A stretch of 64,000 nt of DNA from Fimbriimonadales bacterium (lineage in GTDB: Bacteria > Armatimonadota > Fimbriimonadia > Fimbriimonadales > Fimbriimonadaceae). Both the position numbers and the translations under genes were made by a program. Numbering within the stretch: position 1 is the first letter of the stretch; each line of letters begins with the position of its first letter. The stretch spans positions 30,260 through 94,259 of the forward strand of contig JBBQZV010000012.1 of NCBI GenBank assembly GCA_038207365.1. The letters are read 5' to 3'. A model generated the notes under the pieces. It saw only the letters and a list, made by a program, of their open reading frames with translations, was not told where the DNA came from and did not search any database. Shown here one piece after another: positions 2,393 through 50,528 of this stretch.

Positions 2393-2468
2393 AGGGGTGT
2401 AGCTCAGTTGGTAGAGCGAAGGTCTCCAAAACCTTAGGTCGCGGGTTCGATCCCTGTCGCCCCTGCCA
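2393..2468 (+). tRNA. trnW: tRNA-Trp (anticodon CCA)
   Basis: Cloverleaf has a 7-bp acceptor, D-arm GCTC/GAGC, anticodon stem AAGGT/ACCTT with loop CTCCAAA, a T-arm with TTCGATC loop, and an encoded 3' CCA. Confidence 0.9.
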
Positions 2469-23638: not shown

Positions 23639-23714
23639 TGGCTGCCAGACTAGGGCTTGAACCTAGAACCTCCTGATTCAGAGTCAGGCGCTCTGCCAAT
23701 TGAGCTATCCGGCA
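23639..23714 (-). tRNA. trnQ: tRNA-Gln (anticodon CTG)
   Basis: Reverse-complement cloverleaf has acceptor TGCCGGA/TCTGGCA, D-arm GCTC-AATTGGCA-GAGC, anticodon stem CCTGA/TCAGG with loop CTCTGAA, T-arm CTAGG-TTCAAGC-CCTAG, and an encoded CCA. Confidence 0.85.
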
Positions 23715-23800: not shown

Positions 23801-25528
23801 CTACTTCTTCTCGATCTTGGACCATGAATCTTTCAAACTCACGGTTCGGTTAAATACCAAGGAGTCGAGATTGGTGTCCTTGTCAACGCAGAAGTAACCC
23901 AGCCTTTCGAACTGGTAACGAGTTCCTGCGGTCGCGTCCTTGACACTGGGCTCAATGAAGCAAGTCGAGACGGTCTTCGACAGGGGATTGAGGTTAACCA
24001 GATAATCCTGCCCTTCTTCAAAATCGTCCGGATCTTCTTTCACGAAGAGATGCTCATAGAGTCGCGTTTCGGCGGTCAAGCAGTGCTTCGCTGCTACCCA
24101 GTGTAAGGTGGCTTTGACTTTCCGACCGTCGGGAGAATCACCGCCACGGGTTTCTGGATCGTAAGTGCAGTGGAGCTCCACCACTTCTCCGTTTTCGTCT
24201 TTGATGATTTCGTTACATTTGATGAAGTAACCGTAGCGAAGTCGCACCTCGCGCCCCAACGTCAAGCGAAAGAACTTGGGAGGTGGAACCTCTCGGAAGT
24301 CATCTTGCTCTAGGTAGAGTTCGCGTGCAAAAGGAACCTTTCGCGTTCCCGCTTCAGGAGCCTCCGGATTGTTGATGGCGTCAACGTATTCCACTTGGTC
24401 CTCTGGATAATTGGTGATGATGACCTTGATTGGGTTCATTACCGCCATCACTCGCTGGGCGCACTTATTCAGATCTTCTCGGACGCAGCTTTCCAGGGCA
24501 TGCCACTCGATCGTGCTGTCTGCCTTCGAAATGCCGATTCTCTTGCAGAACTGGGCAATCGAATCTGACGTATAGCCTCTTCTCCGAAGGCCAGCGAGTG
24601 TTGGCATTCGTGGATCGTCGTAACCATCCACATGCTTGCCGTCCACCAATTCAATGAACCGACGTTTGCTCATTACGGTGAAGGGCAATTTCAATCTGGG
24701 AAATTCGATCTGCCTTGGATGGTAGATTCCCAATTCATCCAGGAACCAATCGTAGAGTGGCCGATGGATTTCGTACTCAAGGGAGCAAAGCGAGTGCGTA
24801 ACCCCTTCAATTGAATCTTCAAGGCCATGTGCCCAATCGTATGAAGGGTAGATGCACCATTTATCACCTTGACGGTGATGGTCAGTGTGCCTAATCCGGT
24901 ACATGAACGGATCGCGCATCACAATATTCGGCGAAGCCATATCGATCTTGGCTCGCAACGTGCACGCGCCATCTGGGAATTCTCCCTGTCGCATCCGAGC
25001 GAACAAGTCGAGATTTTCCGCCACACTTCTGTTTCTATAGGGGCTGTCCTCGCCCGGAGAAGTTAAAGTTCCCCTTGTCTTGCTTAGCTCTTCGGGAGAA
25101 AGGTCACAAACATATGCTTTGCCCTTCTTTATAAGTTCAACCGCCCAATCATACATTTGGTCAAAGTAATCAGACCCAAACAGGAGGCGATCTTCCCAGT
25201 CGGCACCTAGCCATTTCACGTCTTCGATGATCGCATCCACAAATTCCTGGTCTTCCTTAACGGGATTCGTGTCATCAAATCGAAGGTTAAATTTTCCGCC
25301 AAAATCTCGGGCAATGCCATAGTCGATCCAAACCGCCTTCGCGTGTCCTATGTGAAGATAGGCATTGGGCTCAGGTGGAAACCGGGTGTGAACTCGGTCA
25401 AATCGACCTTCTGCGAGATCTTGCCTGATGGCGTCCCGAATGAAGTCGGACACGACTTCCGGGGTTTCGACCTGGGCCTGAATATCTATCCCAGCTTCAG
25501 CGACATTGATACCTGCTGTATTTTCCAT
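23801..25528 (-). CDS. glnS: Glutamine--tRNA ligase (GlnRS)
   Basis: Class I HIGH motif (LHIGHAKA), the E. coli-type KMSKS variant VMSKR, and a long C-terminal anticodon-binding region. The start is probably at [11 protein letters not shown]; the ORF is open to 25573. Confidence 0.85.
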
Positions 25529-25725
25529 TTTCTTCGTAATCGATCGATTCCAACCTGCATGACAATCGACCAATTTTTATGACGATTCCTTCTAAAGTAT
25601 ACGGTTGCGCGTTCATTGCAGACCGTGTTGAACCCCAATCTGAAGCTTTGAAGGAGCTAAAACGCATAATTCCTTGAATGAGGACAGTAATTTACTACGG
25701 ATGCTGTGTTACTCTATGATCTGAC

Positions 25726-29812: not shown

Positions 29813-30268
29813 TTGACCTTATACCGCTATATCGACACAAAGAATGCAACGGATAATTGTTTCGTGCAAATACAACCCGCCCCAAACCAGGTCGCCCATT
29901 TTTCAATTAACGCTGACGATGTCACCCGAGCCCGAACCTTCTATGAACAGGTTTTTGGCTGGAGATTCCACGCCTATGGCCCGCCAGGTTTCTACATGAT
30001 TGAGATGGTCGCAGCACCTGCAGTACCTTCACCGCTCTTGGGTTCTCTACAAGGCCGTCGTGAACTCGTCAAAGGGATGAGAACCCAAGGATTTGAATGC
30101 ACGATTGCCGTTGCAGACATTCAAACAACAATTAACCTGATCGAATCGCATGGCGGCAAAATCATCATGCCAAAGTGCACCCTCCCCTCGATTGGGCACT
30201 TATGCTTCTTTCAAGACCCTGAAGGGAATGCGGTAGGGGCAATGCAATACGATTCGAACGCGGAATAG
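29813..30268 (+). CDS. VOC (glyoxalase/bleomycin-resistance/dioxygenase) family protein
   Basis: VAHFSINADDVTRARTFYEQVFGW...GNAVGAMQ. Divergent from the AraC gene, with only 3 bp between their starts. Confidence 0.65.
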   Translation: MTLYRYIDTKNATDNCFVQIQPAPNQVAHFSINADDVTRARTFYEQVFGWRFHAYGPPGFYMIEMVAAPAVPSPLLGSLQGRRELVKGMRTQGFECTIAVADIQTTINLIESHGGKIIMPKCTLPSIGHLCFFQDPEGNAVGAMQYDSNAE

Positions 30269-30275
30269 TCGGCAT

Positions 30276-30836
30276 TCATCGCAGACTAGGTTCTCTCACC
30301 ATCTTCACTTGCGGGATCGCTCCACTGCCGACATGTTGGGTGGTGGAGTTAGATTCAGCTTCTTCGCACGCGGTAAAACCAAATCTTTCATAAAATCGAA
30401 TTGTCCTTGCGTTATATGTAGCGACCCGTAGCCAAATGGGGCGGTCGAGATCGAACCATTTTAGGAGTGCATCCATGAGTTGAGCTCCGATGCCTATGCT
30501 ATGCCATTGGGGAGATACATAAATACTTCCGACCCACTGCTCCAGTTCTACAGATCGATTTCCAATAGCCATTCCAACGATGACGCCATCCATCTTAGCA
30601 ACCAAGTTAAGTACGTCTGGATCGCGAGGCACTTGATATCTCTGGGCTCGTTTAGCAATTCCGGCAGTGGATAAGTTCCCAGCAACCCAAGTCTTCACGA
30701 GATCCACGGTAATCCCCAACTCATCATTCGGATAGGTGTCAACCCAAGCATCGTAAACAACCCGTCCAATGCCTGCAGCATCCTCTGGCGATGCTTGAGA
30801 AATCCTAAATACGTTAGATGTAGCTTGTAAGTCCAC
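30276..30836 (-). CDS. GNAT-family N-acetyltransferase
   Basis: Motif A-like VGSIYVSPQWHSIGIGAQLM and motif B RFYERFGF. Confidence 0.7.
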   Translation of the reverse strand: MDLQATSNVFRISQASPEDAAGIGRVVYDAWVDTYPNDELGITVDLVKTWVAGNLSTAGIAKRAQRYQVPRDPDVLNLVAKMDGVIVGMAIGNRSVELEQWVGSIYVSPQWHSIGIGAQLMDALLKWFDLDRPIWLRVATYNARTIRFYERFGFTACEEAESNSTTQHVGSGAIPQVKMVREPSLR

Positions 30837-31028
30837 GACACAGAACTATAGCAACTATCTGATTTGCACATGTCCTCGTGAGGCTCAACCTATTCCTAAT
30901 AATATTTCTCAAAAAAGTCGCAACCTTTGGGGTTAAACCGTGTAATTCTACTTTTGGATGCCGCACTTAATTCTTGTATTGACAGGAAACGCTGCCCGAA
31001 AGCGTACGGCCTTGGCGGCACGACAAAT

Positions 31029-32972
31029 ATGCTAATTGCACAAGCTAGCCCGGAGTCTTTGCTCCGATTCTGGTGGGTATTACTCCCCTTACTCGCTATC
31101 CTTTTCTTCAAGCCGATCCTTCGCCTCTTCCTGGGAATGGTAATCGTTCCAGAGAACCGCATTGGCTTGGTCACCAAGAAGTTTGTTCTTATTGGTGCGA
31201 ACTCAAAACTGCCTGACGGACGCATTTTGGCGACCCGCGGTGAAGCAGGTATGCAAGCTCGATCGCTTGCTCCCGGCCTCTATTGGATGATGTGGCCCTG
31301 GCAGTATTCAGTAATGATGCAGCCATTCACCATGATTCCAGAAGGGAAAATTGGTCTTGTACTTGCGAATGACGGACGAGAAATGCCGACAGGAAACATC
31401 CTTGCTCGGAAAGTCGAATGCGACAATTTCCAGGACACGGTTACCTTCCTGGATGCGGGCGGCCAAAAGGGTCGCCAGACTCACCTGCTCACGTCCGGAA
31501 CCTATCGAATCAACACTTTAGCTTTCGGCATCACCCTCGCTGACATTGTAGTTATCAAGGAGAACATGGTCGGAATAGTGACCGCTCTTGATGGCCAGCC
31601 TATTCGAAGGGGTCAGATCGCTGGTGAACAAATCGAAGGTCATAACAACTTCCAAAACGTTGATATGTTCCTCAATAACGGAGGCAATCGGGGCCTGCAA
31701 CCCCATGTAATGTTGGCAGGAAGCTATTTCATTAACAAATGGGCGATTCAAATCGAGGAAACGCCAATGACCGAAGTTCCTATCGGCCATGTTGGAGTCG
31801 TCATTTCGTATATCGGCGAGGATGGAAAGGACGTCACTGGAGAATCGTTCAAACACGGAAACATTGTCGAAAAAGGATTCCGTGGAGTCTGGATGGAGCC
31901 ACTAGGTCCTGGCAAATATCCTATCAACAAATACACGATGAAGGTGGAGCTAGTCCCCACCACCAACCTTGTCTTGAACTGGGCTAATGCACGAAGCGAA
32001 TCCCACGCTTTGGACAAGAACTTGAGCACGATAACGGTTCGCAGCAAGGATGGATTTCCTTTCAATCTGGATGTGTCGCAGATCATCCACATTCCTGCCA
32101 TCGAAGCTCCAAAAGTCATCGCACGATTTGGCAGCATGATGAACCTCGTTTCCCAAGTTCTGGAGCCAACCATCGGAAACTACTTCCGAAATAGCGCTCA
32201 AGACAGCGACGTTATCAGCTTCCTTAGCACTCGAAAGGAACGGCAGATGGCTGCCAAAGAGCACATCAACGAGGTGCTGGTTGAATATAACGTTAACGCC
32301 GTCGATACCCTAATCGGAGACATCACTCCCCCCGAAGCGCTGATGAAAACGCTGACTGATCGAAAGATCGCTCAAGAGGAAGAAAAGACCTATGAGACCC
32401 AGCGAATGGCTCAAGAGAAGCGCCAGGGCATGGAAAAGGAAACGGCTATTGCCGACATGCAGCGTGAGATTGTTAAAGCCCAGCAAAGCGTAGAAATCTC
32501 GCAGCGAACAGCAGATGCCACGGTCAAGAAAGCTGAAGGCGACGCAACCAGCCTCAAACTTCAGGTCAATGCCGAATCTGAAGCGATGAAGATGCGCGCC
32601 AATGCAGAAGCCGAAGCGACAAAGGCAAAGGGTGCTGCTCAGGCCGAATATACGAAGATGAACGCTGTCGCTGAAGCCGAGCGCATCTCCAAGACGGGTC
32701 TTGCCGAAGCCGAAAAGATCATGGCGATTGGTAAGTCCACCGCCGAAGCCTACGAACTCCAAGTCAAAGCCATGGGCGAAGAGAACTTCACGCGCTTCAA
32801 GATCACCGAAGAAATCAGCAAGGGCAAGATCAAAATCATCCCCGACCTATTCATCGGAGGCAGCACCGGAGACTCCTCCAACGGAGCCATGAACGGCCTA
32901 ATGGGCATGCAACTCCTCCAAATGATCCAATCCAAAAACGGCAAAGTGCCAGAAGAAGCCACCACGGAGTAA
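31029..32972 (+). CDS. Flotillin-like SPFH/band-7 protein (YqiK/FloA-like)
   Basis: N-terminal TM, an SPFH domain, and a long Ala/Glu/Lys-rich coiled coil (EAEATKAKGAAQAEY...). The start was trimmed to MLIAQASPESLLRFWW. Confidence 0.75.
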   Translation: MLIAQASPESLLRFWWVLLPLLAILFFKPILRLFLGMVIVPENRIGLVTKKFVLIGANSKLPDGRILATRGEAGMQARSLAPGLYWMMWPWQYSVMMQPFTMIPEGKIGLVLANDGREMPTGNILARKVECDNFQDTVTFLDAGGQKGRQTHLLTSGTYRINTLAFGITLADIVVIKENMVGIVTALDGQPIRRGQIAGEQIEGHNNFQNVDMFLNNGGNRGLQPHVMLAGSYFINKWAIQIEETPMTEVPIGHVGVVISYIGEDGKDVTGESFKHGNIVEKGFRGVWMEPLGPGKYPINKYTMKVELVPTTNLVLNWANARSESHALDKNLSTITVRSKDGFPFNLDVSQIIHIPAIEAPKVIARFGSMMNLVSQVLEPTIGNYFRNSAQDSDVISFLSTRKERQMAAKEHINEVLVEYNVNAVDTLIGDITPPEALMKTLTDRKIAQEEEKTYETQRMAQEKRQGMEKETAIADMQREIVKAQQSVEISQRTADATVKKAEGDATSLKLQVNAESEAMKMRANAEAEATKAKGAAQAEYTKMNAVAEAERISKTGLAEAEKIMAIGKSTAEAYELQVKAMGEENFTRFKITEEISKGKIKIIPDLFIGGSTGDSSNGAMNGLMGMQLLQMIQSKNGKVPEEATTE

Positions 32973-32979
32973 CTCCACC

Positions 32980-33015
32980 CCACATTCGACAACGCCGTCG
33001 AATGTGGCCAATTTC
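32980..33015 (+). terminator. Hairpin terminator after the flotillin gene (11-bp perfect stem CCACATTCGAC/GTCGAATGTGG, 6-nt loop, followed by CCAATTTCAT)
   Basis: A perfect inverted repeat 8 bp after the stop codon. The T-tract is short. Confidence 0.45.
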
Positions 33016-33113
33016 ATCCTGCCATTCGAAACCTGCCCCAAAGCGAGATTCCGCCAAACGATCTCCACCAAGTAGTCAAAGCATGAAAGAATGTTCCCCA
33101 CAAGGAATCCTAG

Positions 33114-33358
33114 TTCGTTTTCAGTCCCTATCCATTCGTAGCCACTCAGCGAGGTGCAGTCGCCGATTCCTGTCCGAGTGGGCTCCGCCCCACGAGTTTG
33201 AGTCGGCGCATCGAGCGCAGTGGCGTAAGCGATGGATCAGGACAGAAAACGAACGGCCAAGCGGAGCGACCCAAACGAAATCACAAAGCCAACAACCGAT
33301 CGAGCCAGGCAAAACATAAACAAAGGAAACAAGAAAGTTTCCCCAAAAACTAATCCAG
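33114..33358. repeat. Repeat unit 1 (core 33114..~33273, linker ~33274..33358)
   Basis: Core begins TTCGTTTTCAGTCCCTATCC and ends GGATCAGGACAGAAAACGAACGGCCAAGCGGAGCGACCC. Confidence 0.85.
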
Positions 33359-33600
33359 TTCGTTTTCAGTCCATATTCATTGTAGCCACTCAGCGAGGTG
33401 CAGTCAGCCGACTCTTGTCCGAGTGGGCTCCGCCCCACGAGTTTAAGTCGGCGCACCGAGCGCAGTGGCGTCAAGCGATGGATCAGGACAGAAAACGAAC
33501 GGCCACAGCGGAGCGACCCAGGGAAACTACAAAGCCAACAAATCCTAGAGCGACAGCCATATCCGGTCAAAGAAAGAATGTTCCCCAAAAGGTAATCCAG
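33359..33600. repeat. Repeat unit 2
   Basis: Same core with a few substitutions and indels. The linker shares ACAAAGCCAACAA and the ...GAATGTTCCCCAAAAGGTAATCCAG tail. Confidence 0.85.
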
Positions 33601-33839
33601 TTCGTTTTCAGTCCCTATACATCGTAGCCACTAAGCGAGGTGCAGTCAGCCGATTCCTGTCTGAGTGGGCTCCGTCCCACGAGTTGAATCGGCGCACCGA
33701 GCGCAGTGGCGTCAAGCGATGGATCAGGACAGAAAACGAACGGCCACAGCGGAGCGCCCCAGGAAAATATCAACGGTAACAGACCCAAGAACGAGCAAAA
33801 GCCAACCAAAGAATGAAGGTCCCCAAAAAACTAATCCCG
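33601..33839. repeat. Repeat unit 3
   Basis: Same core; the linker is more diverged. Confidence 0.85.
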
Positions 33840-34080
33840 TTCGTTTTCATTCCCTATCCATCGTAGCCACTCAGCAAGGTGCATTCAGCCGACTCTTGTC
33901 CGAGTGGGCTCCTCCCCACGAGTTTGAGTCGGCGCACCGAGCACAGTGGCGTCAAGCGATGGATCAGGACAGAAAACGAACGGCCACAGCGGAGCGCCCC
34001 AAGAGAATCACAAAGCAAACAAAAGAACAATCCAGCCAGAAACCCAATCTGTCCCTACAAGAGAACCCACCCGTAACTCA
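33840..34080. repeat. Repeat unit 4 (its linker runs into the 3' end of the DUF2339 gene)
   Basis: Same core; the linker has no conserved tail and merges into the stop region of the minus-strand gene at 34082. Confidence 0.8.
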
Positions 34081-34081
34081 C

Positions 34082-36526
34082 TCACTCCAAAGGCAAATCC
34101 GTGCCCTTATCTTCAGGCAACAAAGCATTGGCCGAATGCATTCGGATATACCAATACCCTCCCCCCACCATCCCAATCCCCAGCAAAAGAAGAATCAAAA
34201 CCCGAACACCTGGATCAAGCGACGACAGGTCATACAGAAAGACCTTGACCAACGTCGCTCCGAATACGCCAAAGCTCCAATAACGCATGTTGCGCAGCCT
34301 GAACTGGAAGCCCAAAGCAAGCAATGCAATTGCATAGACAATCCACGCCATCGTCACTGCAGGCCCGTCTTTCAGACCGATCCCTTTCGATGTGAAGAGG
34401 AGATAGGCAAACCGCGAAAACAGAACCCAAGTGTAGAAGATGCAGAAGGAAACGAGGGTTTCCTTCTTGCATAGACGAGGGCCAGTCGCACTAGCCATCA
34501 AGAGGATACAGGCCATCGAGCACGCGAGGAGCCCCGTCTCAATAGTGGACGGCGTCCGCTGATAGAGTTGAATAGTCAGCGCTCCCGCTCCACCAAAGAG
34601 CAAGGCTAACCATCCCTGGGGAACAAGTGCGGTCCAAACGAGGCGACTGGCAAGTCCCCCGGAGAGAGCGGTAACGAGCAGCAAACCGATAACGATTGCA
34701 CACGGAACATTAAGGGCGATGGCAGGGAGCGTCAGCCAAAGTACGGACAGCCGCACGATGAGGCAGGCCATCACGGCACCAACTGCAGAAAGCACATTCG
34801 CTTCACTGTCTGATTCCGTGTTTATTCGTGTGGTTACGCCTGCAAAACAGGTCATACCTATAAGCAAGGCTAGTATGACGGTGTCGAAGGCTGGTGCAGG
34901 AAATCCATCAAAAATGAGCTGACTATATTGCAAGAGTGCTCCCAAGAAGGTCACCCATGCAAGCACAAGAACCATCCGCCAATGGGTTTGTTTGCTTACG
35001 GCAAAGAGTCCCGCCGAGAAAACAAAGAAGGAAACCACGAGCGCGAGAGATGCCGGATAACCAAACGTTGGCGTTGAAAGCAGTACAAAACCGAAGCGAC
35101 TAAACAACGGTAGGGCAATGATACTGGCTACGAGCATTGCATTTTGCGATGCTCCGCCAACTCGCTTAATCGCGAATCCTCCAACTACCGTGGCTACCAT
35201 AAAGGAAACTAAAAGCCAAGATTCTGTTGCTACCGTGAAATGGAAATTGGAAGTGGACCAAGGCGTCGTATAAGCAACAAGGCCCAAAGACAAATTGAGA
35301 GCAGAAAGGCCAGCTAAAGCTTTGGGCGCAAATCGTAAGGCCGCGATTCCGAGCAGGATAGAGAACCCTGCGTAAGCAAATCCAGCTTCGAGTCGGTGGA
35401 AACCAACGGGTGTCAAGGCCGTCGATAGGCTAAGCCCAGCAAGCCAAAAGGCGTTCCGAGCACCCGGCTTTGCAGTAAGCAAGTAACCCACTACTGCGGC
35501 TGGTCCAGACAATAGGAGGACGTGGAGCGACCCGTGAGCAGTCTCATCAAAGGCAAGCGCAGCGACCCCTCCAATAACGAGGAACACACCAGAAAGCATG
35601 CCCCAGGGGTCGAATTCAGTTTCTTTCCAGACTAAGGAATACACTAAAGCTGTGATCAAGCTTGTTCCATACAAGCCTCCGAGCCGAACGGGCCAGTCGT
35701 GGTTGTAAGTCATGGCTGGAATCAGGGCTGCCATGGCCGCTACGAAGAGCAACATCGACATTTCCAGCCACTTGTTCTTGACCACCAAGAGCGCGCAAGG
35801 CACGAGGATCAGGAAGTGGAGGCTAATATCCAGCGTCGCATTGTATCGGCTCATCGGCAACATCGCTGCCGTAAATCCACCCATCATTCCAATAGCCAAG
35901 AAGGAGCGAGACGACTTCAAATGGGAAAAGGCGAAATTGATGAAACTCAGGCACACAAAAAGCACCACGAGCGTCTCACCCGAATACAGATGTTTGAAGA
36001 GGTGAGCACCCGCGAAACTTAAGTAGAGTCCACAGGACCCAATTCCAACCATCAGTTGGCCAAACTCTTCCTTTTCGTTGCGCTTAATAAATCCGAGCCC
36101 AACGAAAGCTAAACAAAGGGCGATTTCACCGCTGAATTGGACGACGGGGGTGATGTACCCTTTTGATACCGCCAACGCCACCAAGTAGATGATGGCGATT
36201 ACGATCACAATGGCTCCACCCCGGAGCAGGCCTGTCAATCCAATCTTATATTCAAGGTCGTCAAGTTGCTTTTCACTTTTAGCGGTAGGCATTGGTTTGG
36301 GAACCACAGGTTCACGACCAAAGCTCTCCCATGCTGCAACCACGTTAGCGACGGGAATCTCCCGATGAATCGGGAGGATCGGAGGAGGAGCAACAACGAC
36401 CTGTTCGGGTTGAGTACCTCCAAGAACCAATTGCTCCACCCTTTGTATTCGGCGGGAAAGCTCGCTGATCGTTCTCTCTACATTCTCAAGTCGGGTTATG
36501 AGCGGGTTTGTTTCCGAATCTGACAT
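34082..36526 (-). CDS. Large polytopic membrane protein, DUF2339-like (N-terminal coiled coil followed by more than 20 TM helices)
   Basis: N-terminal coiled coil LITRLENVERTISELSRRIQRVEQL, then an 814-aa highly hydrophobic body typical of DUF2339. Confidence 0.55.
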   Translation of the reverse strand: MSDSETNPLITRLENVERTISELSRRIQRVEQLVLGGTQPEQVVVAPPPILPIHREIPVANVVAAWESFGREPVVPKPMPTAKSEKQLDDLEYKIGLTGLLRGGAIVIVIAIIYLVALAVSKGYITPVVQFSGEIALCLAFVGLGFIKRNEKEEFGQLMVGIGSCGLYLSFAGAHLFKHLYSGETLVVLFVCLSFINFAFSHLKSSRSFLAIGMMGGFTAAMLPMSRYNATLDISLHFLILVPCALLVVKNKWLEMSMLLFVAAMAALIPAMTYNHDWPVRLGGLYGTSLITALVYSLVWKETEFDPWGMLSGVFLVIGGVAALAFDETAHGSLHVLLLSGPAAVVGYLLTAKPGARNAFWLAGLSLSTALTPVGFHRLEAGFAYAGFSILLGIAALRFAPKALAGLSALNLSLGLVAYTTPWSTSNFHFTVATESWLLVSFMVATVVGGFAIKRVGGASQNAMLVASIIALPLFSRFGFVLLSTPTFGYPASLALVVSFFVFSAGLFAVSKQTHWRMVLVLAWVTFLGALLQYSQLIFDGFPAPAFDTVILALLIGMTCFAGVTTRINTESDSEANVLSAVGAVMACLIVRLSVLWLTLPAIALNVPCAIVIGLLLVTALSGGLASRLVWTALVPQGWLALLFGGAGALTIQLYQRTPSTIETGLLACSMACILLMASATGPRLCKKETLVSFCIFYTWVLFSRFAYLLFTSKGIGLKDGPAVTMAWIVYAIALLALGFQFRLRNMRYWSFGVFGATLVKVFLYDLSSLDPGVRVLILLLLGIGMVGGGYWYIRMHSANALLPEDKGTDLPLE

Positions 36527-36675
36527 GAATACTCCACCTGCAGCGCCATGTTACGCTCACGGACAAGATAAGGTGGTCGGAAAAACCTAGGTCCTGTACG
36601 ACAAGGCAACAAGGAGGGCAATCGGATTCTATTGATGCAATTCCTGGAACGTAGTCCGATTGCGAGGAACGGAAT

Positions 36676-37581
36676 TTGTCCACTTCGTTGTATCGTATAG
36701 GGATGCACTTGACCGCTTCACGATTAAGCGTAGGGGCCACCTTACTTTTCGGTCTATTTCTTACTTCAGCAACCGCCCATACACAGGCACAACAATCTCT
36801 ATCACCTGAGCTACAGGAGGTAGAAAACGTACTCGGCAAGATGCGCCAGATGCCTGATGCTGAACGCGCAGTTGCTTCCAAGAATCTAGCCCTTAAAATA
36901 CGAAAGCTTCCCGCAAGCGCTGACAAGGTCCTTCGCGCGGTCGCCTTGGCTAATCTATCAACGGAAGGTGACTTTGGCCAAAGCACGCTTCAAGAAGTGA
37001 CGACTACTTTAGAGAAGGCCGTGATAGAAAATCCACCCGCCCGAGAGCGGGGCGAGCCAGCATTCGCCTATGCTGAACTGGCCACTTTGGCCCATTACGA
37101 GCACATGAAAGTTTCACTAAAGGTGCCCGACTATCTTGAAGCCCTGTCCAAATTAAACAAGACAGATGAACTCCGGGCAAAAGCAGACTTCACTTTAAAG
37201 GACATTACGGGCCACACATGGACACTTTCTTCACTCAAAGGCAAAGTTGTGGTCGTCAATTTTTGGGCAACCTGGTGCCCACCTTGCCGAAAGGAGATGC
37301 CAGATCTCGAAATCCTTGCTAATCGTTACAAGAAAAAAGGACTCGTCGTTCTAGCTATTTCGAACGAGAAGGACGAGATCGTAAAGGCATTTATCAAGAA
37401 GACGAAGTACACCTACCCCATCCTCTTGGATCCAGCTGGCGAAACTAACAAAGCTTATAGTATTGATGGCATTCCGAAGACCTATTTCTACAATCGAAAA
37501 GGTGCTCTCGTGGCCCAAGCCATCGACATGCGAACGATGGATCAGTTTAAGAAACTTCTCCTCCGCACCGGACTAAAATAA
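36676..37581 (+). CDS. TlpA/ResA-like thiol:disulfide oxidoreductase (thioredoxin fold, secreted)
   Basis: Signal peptide. C-terminal redoxin motif VVVNFWATWCPPCRKEMP. The N-terminal helical extension resembles TPR. Confidence 0.75.
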   Translation: MSTSLYRIGMHLTASRLSVGATLLFGLFLTSATAHTQAQQSLSPELQEVENVLGKMRQMPDAERAVASKNLALKIRKLPASADKVLRAVALANLSTEGDFGQSTLQEVTTTLEKAVIENPPARERGEPAFAYAELATLAHYEHMKVSLKVPDYLEALSKLNKTDELRAKADFTLKDITGHTWTLSSLKGKVVVVNFWATWCPPCRKEMPDLEILANRYKKKGLVVLAISNEKDEIVKAFIKKTKYTYPILLDPAGETNKAYSIDGIPKTYFYNRKGALVAQAIDMRTMDQFKKLLLRTGLK

Positions 37582-46946: not shown

Positions 46947-49727
46947 CTAGTTCTTGTTCAAGTACAGAATGCAGTGCTGAATACCAAACTTCTGCATATA
47001 TCCAAGATCGTCAAAATCTCCCATTTCAGCAGATTCAATTCCCGTTCCGTGATAACCCAAGTGGATGAGATTATCGGTTGCCCCTTGTCCTCCATCAATC
47101 CACCTATAGGCGTAAAGGATGTCCCCTCCAAAGAATGCCGCTCCTACGGTTGATCGGCTGTTACTCCACTCGTCGTAATACCGCTTAACCAGCCAGCCGC
47201 CCTGAACGTGCCCCCCCGAAATCTTCTTGTCTGAGATGGTTTCTGCGACGTAACCGCATGCCCAGGGAGATTCCTTTCCGTGATCACCGAGCGTAAAGTA
47301 GTAAATCTTTCCGTCCTTACCATGTCGCTTGTCGGCGTCAAAGAGAACGGTGGGACGTGAGCGACCCCGTACCGAACCTTTTTCCCCCTCGATCCACTCC
47401 ATCCCAGCGCTCACGAAGGCATCGTTCCTGAGAATATATTTGCGAATCTGCCAACGCGAAAGACGCTTGTCATCTTGGTCCTGCGCCATCCCAAGAATAA
47501 GCTGGTGATGTATGGTGTCTACAGCGGGCCCGACGGGTACGGTCGACTTGTCTGGGAGTGTCAACGTGGGCCCTGAGCCCCCTTTAATCACTTGATAGGT
47601 CACCGTTTGAGTTGCTGGATTCCAAAGGAAAAGCCATAGCTTATGGTCGTATTCACCAATCGTGGGCACCAATTTGCTGTCGCTAGAAGCAAAGCTCGAG
47701 GTGGAAACATCAATTCCCGAACCAGTGTCACTGACTTCCCTTACGACGATTCCGTCTTTAGTTTGGTAGGCAACTACTATCTTCCCGCCAAAACTCGCAG
47801 CAACGGGATCGCCGATAACACCCCAATAATCGATGGTCTGTTCCTTCTCCCATTCAAAGGGCTTCTTTAGCCGCTTGATGTATAGAGCACCCGGTTTGTC
47901 GGGACCATTAGTCGGGTCAATCTTCGGGTTCGGCGTTCGGGTATCCCTGGTAAAGAGTACATACGCGTGACCCTTGTGAGAAACGATGAACGGCGCACAC
48001 TCAGTCTTGTCAACGTTATCCCGACGCCCAGCAGTAGTGGAGTAAGCGTAGTTTATGTCGGCCTTAACGTGGTGCTCCCCAAAAACTCCGTTCCAGTTCC
48101 AGTCGATGAGCGTAGTCTTGCCGTTGGCTTTAAGGTGGAACCGGTAAGGAGCGTTTTCGAGGAACTTTACTTTCTCATAAGGCAACGGTAATTCTTCGTC
48201 TAGGTCAGATTCTTTGATGAGAACGTTTGCCAGTCGACCATCGCTATAGCCAATATTCTTAATATCCCCGTTAAGCGTATAGCTATATGGGTAATTCATT
48301 AGGCTGGGGAAAACTGGACATCCATCAGAATTGAAGAACCCGTTATGGCTCAACCCAAGTTGATGGCCGAATTCATGGATGAAAGTGGCGTACAGCGCCA
48401 TTCCTCCGCCGCCGCAGCCTCCTCCATCACCCAACTGATCTGCCTGACCTCCGCCACCTCGTCCGATCTGCATCCAATGAACGATTCCCTTCCACTTAGA
48501 AGGCAGAAATTTATCGCGATTGGCCCACCAGGAATTCTTCATGTCCCCACCACTCACTTTGTCAAGGAAGACTGGATGAAGATTCCAGCCGGTGGAGCCA
48601 TCTGAATTCTTTACTGGAAGCGACTTGTAGTAGCCCTTGATCTTGTCGAAAGTGTCTTTTGCGAATTTCTCGTCTACATCTTCAAAGCGAGAAATGAGGC
48701 AAACAAGATCGACCTTTCGCGGGTCACAACTCATGCCGGCAAGATCCAAGCCTCGGATACCCTTTACTTCCCATCCGTCTAGAAGCCCATCTCCGTCCGT
48801 GTCTGGATTGTAAGGGTCCGTGCCCAACTTTGCCTCTTCCACATTCGTCAACCCATCGTGGTCAGAGTCGATCTCGCTGTCGGAGACCGTGCGATAAACC
48901 ATCACATCGTTGGCAGTGTGCTGTTCGTGTCCAAATCGAAATTGGAAAAGGTCAACGTCCCCATCCTTATCTATGTCTCCAGCGCACCAGATCGATGGTG
49001 CAGCCACCAGAGACGAGGTCGGCCTAACCAGGACAGTTCCGTCATTCTTCGACACCGTGTCAACAAAAACGCTGTCGCCAGCGACGACAGCGTTTTGGCC
49101 GGTCAGAACTTTGCCAATCAATTCTGGGCTGGACGAAGCAACGCTGCCACGCTTTACTGTCCCGTCCTGGAATTCAAAGATCCATTGCGAGGACTTGGCC
49201 TCTTGAATGCTAATGGTTCCTGCTGGGGCTCGAAAGTCGGCGGTCGCCTTAGACGTGCCATCAATTCGATAACCTCGGCCGGACTTGACATCCCAAACAA
49301 AGAGGTTTCCACCTAGAACAGCCAATTTCGGGTGAGCAATCTTTGCTGGCAACTTGGCCCAGTCGGGCTTGTCCGTGAACTTTCCACCCTCATCACTAGT
49401 CGCCAGACGAAGCTGGTTACCGCCAAAAGCACCCACCACTGCTGACTGCTTGCCCGTGCCAAGCACACCCACTGCGGCAGCCATACAATCCTTGCCCCAA
49501 TTGGAAAGCGCGCGATCTGGACGACCCGCTTTCATACTTTCACAATTCAGTGAGACATCGATGAATGAGTCGCCATTAGGTTGAACACGAATGAGATCTG
49601 CATAGCCATCTCCATTCATATCAGCAACATATGCCCAAGAACCATCGGGTGCGAATCCAGATGCCCATGGAATGGGAGGTGCAATTAGGGGAGCAGTGAG
49701 GATCGCAAGGGCTGTCACACCGATCAT
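46947..49727 (-). CDS. Secreted zinc metalloprotease (metzincin HEFGHxxGxxH) with FG-GAP/VCBS-like and thrombospondin type-3 Ca-binding repeats
   Basis: Motifs: FIHEFGHQLGLSHNG; MNGDGYADL and DIDKDGDVDLF (FG-GAP); DSDHDGLTNVEE...DTDGDGLLDGWE (TSP3). Confidence 0.7.
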   Translation of the reverse strand: MIGVTALAILTAPLIAPPIPWASGFAPDGSWAYVADMNGDGYADLIRVQPNGDSFIDVSLNCESMKAGRPDRALSNWGKDCMAAAVGVLGTGKQSAVVGAFGGNQLRLATSDEGGKFTDKPDWAKLPAKIAHPKLAVLGGNLFVWDVKSGRGYRIDGTSKATADFRAPAGTISIQEAKSSQWIFEFQDGTVKRGSVASSSPELIGKVLTGQNAVVAGDSVFVDTVSKNDGTVLVRPTSSLVAAPSIWCAGDIDKDGDVDLFQFRFGHEQHTANDVMVYRTVSDSEIDSDHDGLTNVEEAKLGTDPYNPDTDGDGLLDGWEVKGIRGLDLAGMSCDPRKVDLVCLISRFEDVDEKFAKDTFDKIKGYYKSLPVKNSDGSTGWNLHPVFLDKVSGGDMKNSWWANRDKFLPSKWKGIVHWMQIGRGGGGQADQLGDGGGCGGGGMALYATFIHEFGHQLGLSHNGFFNSDGCPVFPSLMNYPYSYTLNGDIKNIGYSDGRLANVLIKESDLDEELPLPYEKVKFLENAPYRFHLKANGKTTLIDWNWNGVFGEHHVKADINYAYSTTAGRRDNVDKTECAPFIVSHKGHAYVLFTRDTRTPNPKIDPTNGPDKPGALYIKRLKKPFEWEKEQTIDYWGVIGDPVAASFGGKIVVAYQTKDGIVVREVSDTGSGIDVSTSSFASSDSKLVPTIGEYDHKLWLFLWNPATQTVTYQVIKGGSGPTLTLPDKSTVPVGPAVDTIHHQLILGMAQDQDDKRLSRWQIRKYILRNDAFVSAGMEWIEGEKGSVRGRSRPTVLFDADKRHGKDGKIYYFTLGDHGKESPWACGYVAETISDKKISGGHVQGGWLVKRYYDEWSNSRSTVGAAFFGGDILYAYRWIDGGQGATDNLIHLGYHGTGIESAEMGDFDDLGYMQKFGIQHCILYLNKN

Positions 49728-49805
49728 CTCACTAATCTACTCAGTTTCAGCTCCTTACTTTACTGAGAAAGGAACTTCTATCAATGCTTAAATTCTGCGC
49801 ATGGG

Positions 49806-50528
49806 ATGATCGGCAAGATCGGGCCAGATAAAACCTTGCAAAGGTATCGTGACGATATGGCCACGAGCTCTCTCATTCTGGAAATCGGGTGCAAACTTCT
49901 CTTCATTGGCGATTCAATAACGGACGCAGGCAGAGCCCAGCCGGTCGGAGAGGGACTCTTTGGGGCTCATGGAACCGGATATGTCAACACAGTTGCCGGA
50001 TTACTTGGCTCGATTTACGGCGCCAGACGAATACGTGTAGTGAACCAGGGATGCAGCGGAAACACTATCGTAGACCTCAAGGCTCGTTGGCATCGCGATG
50101 TGACCAGCCTAAATCCTGACTGGCTTTGTTTGATGATTGGCATCAACGATGTGTGGCGTCAATTTGATTTGCCTCACCAAACCGAACAGCATGTGAGCTT
50201 GGCGGAATACGAATCGACTCTGGAAGAGCTAGTTTCGTTGACCAAACCCAGCTTGAAAGGCCTAGTGCTCATGACTCCTTATTACATTGAGCCCCTCAAG
50301 GATGACGCGATGCGGCGGCGAATGGATGAATACGGTGCAGCGGTCTTTCGAGTGGCGCAAAAGCACAATGCGATATTCGTTGACACTCAAAAAGCAATGG
50401 ACCGTGCGCTTGAAAACTGGTATCCAGCTGCACTCGCATGGGATAGGGTTCATCCCAATCAAGTGGGAACGACGGTTCTGGCTAAAGCCTTTTTGGATGC
50501 AATTGGATTTGATTGGAATGGAAATTAG
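49806..50528 (+). CDS. SGNH/GDSL hydrolase family protein
   Basis: Motifs LLFIGDSITDAG, MIGINDVW and DRVHPN (catalytic D-x-x-H). Confidence 0.7.
   Translation: MIGKIGPDKTLQRYRDDMATSSLILEIGCKLLFIGDSITDAGRAQPVGEGLFGAHGTGYVNTVAGLLGSIYGARRIRVVNQGCSGNTIVDLKARWHRDVTSLNPDWLCLMIGINDVWRQFDLPHQTEQHVSLAEYESTLEELVSLTKPSLKGLVLMTPYYIEPLKDDAMRRRMDEYGAAVFRVAQKHNAIFVDTQKAMDRALENWYPAALAWDRVHPNQVGTTVLAKAFLDAIGFDWNGN

Follow-up and report, generated by a model that had tools for sequence, protein, structure and literature searches.

Tandem genes for small RNAs (sRNAs) occur in several bacteria, among them LhrC1-4 of Listeria, PrrF1/PrrF2 of Pseudomonas and the NsiR1 repeats of Anabaena; their units are 60–120 nt long, with a separate promoter and Rho-independent terminator for every unit. 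The REP/BIME, ERIC, Neisseria Correia and pneumococcal BOX elements are dispersed repeats that reach tens to hundreds of copies per genome, with target-site duplications in the case of the Correia elements. Here we analyse a tandem array of four long hairpins in a Fimbriimonadales bacterium of the phylum Armatimonadota (assembly GCA_038207365.1). The array lies in a 64,000-nt stretch of contig JBBQZV010000012.1 (positions 30,260 to 94,259 of the forward strand), referred to below as the window, and all coordinates are counted from the first nucleotide of that stretch. Judged by its sequence, the array is most aptly called a candidate for a new structured RNA module; one metagenome-assembled genome carries it, in four tandem copies.

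The array occupies positions 33085..34023 (+) and is housed in a convergent gap of 1.1 kb between a flotillin gene and a DUF2339 gene. Tandem Repeats Finder, direct-repeat families and alignment delimit 3.9 units with a period of about 240 nt and start-to-start distances of 245, 242 and 239 nt. There is also a super-period of 481 nt, in that copy 1 resembles copy 3 and copy 2 resembles copy 4. An earlier note on this DNA had pointed to a compensatory base-pair change between the copies as support for a selected secondary structure. Our analysis shows that the secondary structure of the hairpin is clearly under selection, but on grounds other than the compensatory pair.

Structure of the repeated hairpin

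Each copy is an imperfect palindrome that folds to a single rod of 52 base pairs. The hairpin of copy 1 (33113..33254, +, 142 nt) runs from GTTCGTTTTC to GAAAACGAAC and has a minimum free energy of -69.3 kcal/mol, while those of copy 2 (33358..33500, +, 143 nt), copy 3 (33600..33741, +, 142 nt) and copy 4 (33839..33981, +, 143 nt) reach -69.0, -68.8 and -73.2 kcal/mol, respectively. Not one of 200 shuffles folded as well as the real hairpin in any copy (z -7.1 to -9.0). For copies 1 to 4 in order, the z scores were -7.10, -8.19, -8.12 and -9.01 on the + strand and -5.36, -6.28, -7.09 and -8.09 on the - strand, and a covariance model built from the four array copies scored them at 169, 188, 184 and 189 bits.

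The rod begins with a 10-bp basal helix (GUUCGUUUUC/GAAAACGAAC), followed by an A/A mismatch, GUCC/GGAC and a 2x2 loop, and continues towards the tip with AUCCAUCG/CGAUGGAU, GCCACU/AGUGGC, another 2x2 loop and GC/GC. Its upper part comprises a tandem G·A loop, GGUGC/GCACC, a 5-nt bulge and the helix GCCGAYUC/GARUCGGC, and the tip consists of an internal loop closed by C-G and a second tandem G·A, the helix GUGGG/CCCAC and the hexaloop CUCCGC. In copy 1 the apical domain (33162..33207, +) is formed by GCCGATTC/GAGTCGGC, with the pair T33167·G33202, and encloses GTGGG-CTCCGC-CCCAC with its loop at 33183-33188. The corresponding arms are GCCGACTC/AAGTCGGC in copy 2 (33407..33452, +; C33412-G33447, a loop-proximal C·A mismatch, loop CTCCGC at 33428-33433), GCCGATTC/GAATCGGC in copy 3 (33649..33693, +; T33654-A33688, loop CTCCGT at 33670-33675) and GCCGACTC/GAGTCGGC in copy 4 (33888..33933, +; C33893-G33928, loop CTCCTC at 33909-33914).

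The 3' arm of the basal helices is an invariant 33-mer, AAGCGATGGATCAGGACAGAAAACGAACGGCCA, which is found at 33227..33259 (+), 33473-33505, 33714-33746 and 33954-33986 and is identical in all four copies. Each rod has two tandem G·A 2x2 internal loops (GC-GA-GGUGC/GCACC-GA-GC and C-GA-GUGGG/CCCAC-GA-G), both strictly conserved. The 5-nt bulge AGUCA is conserved too, the region of G·A loop and bulge lying at 33150-33160 with 33213-33223 and at the equivalent sites of the other copies. These loops and the bulge are possible protein-recognition sites. Every unit has terminal inverted repeats with arms of 23–27 nt that are 83–87% complementary and constitute the base of the rod. The linkers between hairpins measure 97–103 nt, of which the first ~20 and last ~27 nt are conserved and the middle 35–45 nt are A/C-rich and scarcely alignable between units.

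Two additional pairings were rejected. A closing helix of the 5' with the 3' flanks (GUUUCCC/GGGAAAC) is good in copy 2 only and, by eye, partial in copy 3, and a small hairpin on the - strand (GGUCGC...GUGGCC) is lost in copies 3 and 4.

Selection on the hairpin

In the alignment, 98.6% of pair cells hold standard pairs, a proportion that drops to 28–44% once the 3' partner is slid by 1–3 columns. Hairpin identity is 91–94% in all six pairwise comparisons, whereas the central spacers of the same units share only 39–60%, indicating that the duplication is old; by our estimate, the hairpin has evolved some ten times more slowly than its surroundings. As 17 of the 19 substitutions are private to a single copy, this similarity does not come from very recent homogenisation. 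The substitutions also avoid the helices: variable columns account for 8 of 100 paired but 12 of 44 unpaired columns (Fisher p = 0.0036), and three pair cells are broken where 8.2 ± 1.6 would be expected had the 19 substitutions been placed at random with the same base kinds (P = 0.002).

Pairing does not exhaust the constraint. The unpaired columns of the rod are far better conserved than the spacers, and of the variable columns in the basal region, five lie in the 5' arm and one in the 3' arm. The conserved unpaired columns, together with an invariant 33-nt 3' arm opposite an arm with five variable columns, argue for a sequence-specific constraint beyond pairing. The spacers have drifted near randomness, while the 142-nt rod and ~20–30 nt on each side of it have been retained. 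An ancestral unit of ~240 nt was probably duplicated by the route A to AB to ABA'B'.

A protein-coding explanation for this conservation is ruled out by the unequal unit lengths, by 1-nt indels between units and by the absence of a Pfam match to the 155-aa open reading frame (ORF) within the array, which is thus noncoding. The ORF in question (33121-33588, -) spans two repeat units and is probably a repeat artefact, though automatic annotation might call it a gene.

The compensatory change on which the earlier note had relied lies in the helix GCCGAYUC/GARUCGGC. Its variable pair is indeed T·G, C-G, T-A and C-G in copies 1 to 4, and the arms of copy 1 (33162-33169 with 33200-33207) and copy 3 (33649-33656 with 33686-33693) are where they had been reported; those of copy 4 are at 33888-33895 with 33926-33933. 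The partner in copy 2, given as ~33443-33450, had to be moved 2 nt rightward to 33445-33452, and it starts with A rather than G, so that the loop-proximal pair there is C·A. The loop variants CTCCGC, CTCCGC, CTCCGT and CTCCTC and the change from TATCC to the wobble TATTC were both found in the sequence. It had further been said that the other differences fall mostly in loops, bulges and wobbles, which is borne out by the 12 unpaired against 8 paired variable columns but passes over three breaks. Changes in paired columns amount to five wobbles, one compensated pair and three breaks, the last being a G-to-T in copy 4 (column 17 of alignment A2), a C-to-A in copy 3 (TATAC, column 25) and a G-to-A in copy 2 (column 94).

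The covariation itself adds nothing. T is found on the 5' arm of copies 1 and 3 and the matching A in copy 3 alone, and when the 3' letters were shuffled, 256 of 500 shuffles equalled the observed covariation score. RNAalifold, applied to the four copies, attributes just -0.56 kcal/mol out of -73.3 to its covariation term. The conclusion that the structure is selected is therefore sound by virtue of the other statistics, but the argument from the compensatory pair does not carry it. In these four paralogues the co-change amounts to one path of two steps (C-G, U·G, U-A); it is real but without statistical weight. There is a methodological lesson here, namely that a single Y/R co-change in four paralogues is not evidence, whereas the placement of the full set of substitutions with respect to the helices is.

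Strand of the functional molecule

The number of non-pairing cells is 3 on the + strand and 11 on the - strand; 4 of the 11 are due to a single invariant U·G pair. One-sided changes comprise five C-to-U opposite G, which leave a wobble on the + strand, against one that wobbles on the - strand only (binomial ~0.11 by our arithmetic). The z score is more extreme on the + strand in four of four copies, and when the whole gap is folded, the linkers are open on the + strand (mean probability of being unpaired, P(unpaired), 0.65) and mispaired on the - strand (0.39). Finally, a C-to-U change in the loop of copy 3 preserves a duplex between loop and flank, described below, on the + strand only. The + strand, in the sense of the flotillin gene, is modestly favoured as functional by this pattern of substitutions and predicted folds. 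The earlier note had also argued from G·T tolerance for selection on an RNA rather than on a DNA cruciform; the non-pairing cells, z scores and linkers lean that way, if weakly.

Complementarity between loop and flank

The conserved 3' flank contains an invariant GCGGAG, at 33261..33266 (+), 33508-33513, 33749-33754 and 33989-33994, that complements the apical loop CUCCGC. Taken with its closing G (G-CUCCGC), the loop complements GCGGAG-C in the best-conserved part of the flank, 7–13 nt beyond the base of the rod. The resulting duplex has 7 bp in copies 1 to 3, at -15.5 kcal/mol in copies 1 and 2 and -13.8 in copy 3, where a U·G is retained; in copy 4 it is shorter, interrupted by one mismatch and worth -10.4 kcal/mol. 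Among shuffled flanks, 1.2% contain a perfect 6-mer complement. With ~52 stacked pairs, the rod would be ~170 Å long by our estimate and cannot reach its own flank, so that contact would be made only between units or between molecules. The rods could then be modules of a self-assembling RNA, in which each apical loop pairs with a neighbour's flank to give a side-by-side bundle or multimers, but we regard this as a long shot. If true, the array would be a scaffold made of RNA alone, for which this phylum offers no described precedent. A bolder variant, a guide array in which the ~200-nt block serves as scaffold and the variable 35–45 nt as guide, is disfavoured.

Search for homologues

Rfam 15 contained no match to the array at E ≤ 1 (positions 30000-37000, both strands), and at the gathering threshold it recognised only two tRNAs in the whole window. 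Two different 19-mers of the invariant arm, required to match exactly, gave four single chance matches in 185,579 species genomes and four in the metagenome collection, all of which were rejected by the covariance model. Three scans of viral contigs, one each with a 17-mer, with the apical motif and with a basal-helix pattern in two parts, gave two chance matches, both rejected, and blastn of the array against plasmids and phages returned nothing. The covariance model, run with filters off, found no copy in the 64-kb window beyond the four. It likewise found no match at 28 of the 29 loci with orthologous flotillin/DUF2339 genes on contigs of the nearest relatives (L005-L014, L019-L031, L034); the 29th locus, L034, was outside the scan and has no intergenic gap beside its DUF2339 gene. 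The loci retrieved numbered 34 in all, and those scanned gave no match to the model. In the literature on RNA motifs of Armatimonadetes and Fimbriimonas, no described regulatory RNA was found.

Because no homologue was present in the collections searched, a larger alignment could not be built. By its flanking proteins, the window belongs to Armatimonadota and there to Fimbriimonadaceae or their vicinity. The DUF2339 protein has one 100% match (P0121, on a single 115-kb NCBI contig) and a second-best match of only 53%, so that the databases hold no close relative of this species. On the evidence of these searches, the array is a lineage-specific orphan, acquired within a variable gap.

The same gap differs widely between relatives. 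It is 52 nt long in Fimbriimonas sp. GCA_031292555.1 and consists of 450 nt of unrelated sequence in a species with 93% flotillin identity, while a relative with 89% flotillin identity has a different two-unit repeat and two small genes there. This repeat (contig L019, 8008-8553) begins 12 nt past the flotillin stop and is composed of two 323-nt units that are 94% identical over 223 nt. Several of its hairpins bear AGGA or AGGAC loops (GCGUCCA-AGGA-UGGACGC; a 14-bp stem with loop AGGAC; ACAGUGCAC-AGGAC-GUGCUGU), and it matches the Rfam model PrrB_RsmZ below threshold (14.8 bits, E 0.72), making it a candidate Csr/Rsm-type sponge RNA in Fimbriimonadaceae. No homology was detected between the window array and either this repeat or the gap of contig L005.

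Three contigs of the 89% relative (L020, L021 and L022) end 50–70 nt past the flotillin stop codon. These ends fit assembler breaks at a tandem repeat, and arrays of this type may be under-represented in metagenome assemblies.

Genomic context

The upstream neighbour of the array is the SPFH/flotillin gene (31029..32972, +; Pfam Band_7, E 5e-23), which encodes 647 aa from a start inferred by homology. Its product is 93% identical to P0001, counted from residue 35 of the open reading frame, and a TTGACA box is present upstream of the gene. Downstream and convergent lies the gene for a DUF2339 membrane protein (34082..36526, -; 814 aa; Pfam DUF2339). The flotillin is 80–83% identical to proteins of Bacteroidota (Foetidibacter, Flavihumibacter, Filimonas, Ferruginibacter), and the adjoining DUF2339 protein falls to 50% within the family; the flotillin would be either unusually conserved or transferred between phyla.

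A hairpin at 32980..33007 (+), CCACATTCGAC-AACGCC-GTCGAATGTGG, lies 8 nt past the flotillin stop codon and is terminator-like, without a U tract. Relatives carry similar hairpin-only structures at the equivalent site. Gaps between convergent genes of this clade contain long hairpins that are rich in G+C and lack a U tract (32980-33007 in the window, 8605-8648 in L019 and ~8487-8524 in L030), which suggests that these hairpins may serve as hairpin-only terminators, perhaps bidirectional ones. As they lack U tracts, read-through into the array from either side is plausible.

The surroundings of the array are ordinary chromosomal DNA, and according to Pfam the ORFs at ~19.4-50.5 kb are housekeeping genes only. 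Pfam revealed no transposase, integrase, reverse transcriptase, Cas or RNA-binding protein gene within ~15 kb on either side, and none of the neighbours emerged as a partner gene for the array. Elsewhere in the window, gene orientation flips from - to + between 46947-49727 and 49806-50528 (at ~49,750), and the cumulative GC skew has its minimum in the 48001-50000 bin; this switch may be a replication landmark or merely the boundary of a divergent operon. The window also contains tRNA-Trp(CCA) at 2393-2468 (+) and tRNA-Gln(CTG) at 23639-23714 (-), the latter adjoining the glutaminyl-tRNA synthetase gene (23801-25573, -).

Explanations for the array

The explanation that we put first, tentatively and at somewhat short of an even chance, is that the array comprises four tandem duplicates of one structured RNA module on the + strand. 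The functional strand would have the sense of flotillin, and a single transcript of ~1 kb would arise by read-through of the weak post-flotillin hairpin or from an unrecognised promoter, bearing four independently folding rods on unstructured A/C-rich linkers. The rods would most likely be multi-copy platforms to which a protein or another RNA binds sequence-specifically, or else precursors excised by a double-strand-specific RNase, because the parts conserved in them include the unpaired ones (the two tandem G·A loops, the 5-nt bulge, the apical CUCC) and the 33-nt 3' arm. A role as mere terminators is unlikely. Several observations weigh against this + strand module. No homologue of it was found in Rfam, genomes, metagenomes, plasmids, phages or syntenic loci, and four paralogous sequences from one genome provide no real covariation, while gene conversion may add to the high hairpin identity. 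Tolerance of G·T would be no less expected if the + strand formed the hairpin as single-stranded DNA, and the strand preference comes from few events (5 vs 1 wobble-type changes). A consensus scan, for sigma-70 type promoters only, detected no + strand promoter or intrinsic terminator at any array unit, and the two weak promoter-like sites that it did detect in the array are both on the - strand. In addition, the hairpin at 32980-33007, a possible flotillin terminator, separates that gene from the array, and the transcript of DUF2339 meets copy 4 before any terminator of its own.

This last point is where a - strand RNA in the sense of DUF2339 has its appeal. With no other hairpin between the DUF2339 stop codon (34082) and copy 4, its transcript must enter the array, and the rods would form its 3' untranslated region, as terminators or 3' end protectors; terminators of this clade do appear to be long hairpins without U tracts, and the promoter-like matches are confined to this strand. 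The - strand likewise folds to a rod (z -5.4 to -8.1) and holds 27 GGA against 16 on the + strand. In one variant, the GGAG of its apical loop (GCGGAG, ACGGAG or GAGGAG, the GGAG being invariant) and a GGAUU just past the rod would be displayed as protein-binding sites. However, the - strand has more non-pairing cells, weaker z scores in every copy and G/U-rich, mispairing linkers, and a plain terminator role leaves the conserved bulges and loops, the invariant 33-mer and the presence of four copies unexplained, so we consider it rather improbable. Somewhat better placed, though still unlikely, is a palindromic repeat acting at the DNA level, of the MITE (miniature inverted-repeat transposable element), REP/BIME, ERIC or Correia type, whose single insertion between the convergent genes would have been followed by amplification through unequal crossing-over. 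Gene conversion would keep the copies similar and template switching would keep them paired, without a dedicated RNA function. An imperfect palindrome of ~145 bp with 25-nt terminal inverted repeats, sited between convergent genes and made of units without their own promoter or terminator, is what such an element would look like, and it would be lineage-specific, as is the array (one relative has 52 nt between both genes and others have unrelated inserts). Template switching is an established mutational mechanism and, we infer, could yield a single 'compensatory' change without selection. Yet there is no further copy in the window, none at the level of a 19-mer in the species genomes or the metagenome set and no transposase nearby, and the regular 240-nt spacing with homologous flanks indicates tandem duplication rather than repeated insertion. 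The private substitutions (17 of 19) also speak against recent homogenisation, and conserved mismatches and bulges stay uncorrected while substitutions avoid paired sites.

The contrast in identity between hairpins (91–94%) and spacers (39–60%), along with the non-random placement of substitutions relative to pairing, makes it very improbable that the array is a neutral, recent tandem duplication (a minisatellite) with an incidental hairpin, for all that it is tandem and known from one genome only. Barely credible is a repeat-spacer array for storing or presenting variable segments, be it CRISPR-like with very long repeats or built of integron-like attC hairpins. The alternation of ~200-nt conserved blocks with ~35–45-nt variable segments at a regular period, and a hairpin wobble pattern specific to a single strand, would suit it. 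The spacers, though, share composition and residual homology (AGCCAG..AAAC, GTCAAAG) as decayed duplicates do, no cas, integrase or reverse transcriptase gene lies within ~15 kb on each side, the repeat exceeds any CRISPR repeat about fivefold in length, the hairpin terminates in GTTCG...CGAAC instead of RYYYAAC...GTTRRRY, and there are no cassette ORFs.

Comparison with known systems

Some likenesses could be dismissed outright. The conserved block of ~200 nt compares with ~23–50-nt repeats in a CRISPR array, and the spacers are related to each other, with no cas genes nearby. As an integron attC array, the locus lacks an integrase and the RYYYAAC/GTTRRRY core, its hairpins ending in GTTCGTTTTC ... 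GAAAACGAAC, and the 97–103 nt linkers are without an ORF. The basal helix also resembles the Tn3 inverted repeat, probably by coincidence, as its two halves are in a different order.

Like the 6S RNA, the signal recognition particle (SRP) 4.5S RNA and Y RNA, each rod is one long irregular hairpin, in their case of ~140–190 nt, with conserved internal loops. Unlike 6S and SRP RNA, it has neither a large central bubble nor the SRP domain IV loops with a GNRA tetraloop, and it comes in four tandem copies. The largest internal loops of the rod are the 2x2 loops, the 5-nt bulge and the apical internal loop of 5–8 nt, and Rfam gave no 6S match. CsrB/CsrC, RsmX/Y/Z and CrcZ are similar in that a short structured module is repeated in one RNA with rapid turnover between lineages. 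In contrast to these sponges, the GGA motifs on the + strand of the array sit in helices (those of AUGGAUCAGGAC are base-paired) and CUCCGC forms the apical loop. Nor is this strand enriched in GGA (16 observed against ~18 expected from composition, by our arithmetic), and the Rfam Csr/Rsm models did not match the array. A CsrA-sponge reading of the window array is thus unsupported on the + strand, although the - strand loop does carry GGAG.

With the REP, ERIC, Correia and BOX elements the array shares an imperfect palindrome of ~100–150 bp, a site between convergent genes, clustering, lineage specificity and a predicted fold of the transcript. It differs from them in being a single locus in 64 kb and in consisting of tandem duplicates that include the flanks. 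No direct repeat that could be a target-site duplication brackets the hairpin, and the units have homologous flanks.

The gap downstream of the flotillin gene may act as a nursery of modular RNAs, as suggested by the different tandem structured repeat, with AGGA loops, that a related species bears at the same position. If the array is transcribed, it would represent a new structured RNA class from Armatimonadota and an example of how an RNA can originate through module duplication in a variable gap between convergent genes. Tandem sRNA genes offer the nearest parallel: there, too, head-to-tail paralogous modules lie in one intergenic region, and the structure is conserved while the sequence between the copies is not. 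The array departs from them in its units, which have no promoter or terminator of their own, in the 142-nt length of its rod and in having no known homologue outside this genome. By analogy, then, it would appear to act most like a tandem sRNA gene cluster or a modular multi-hairpin RNA.

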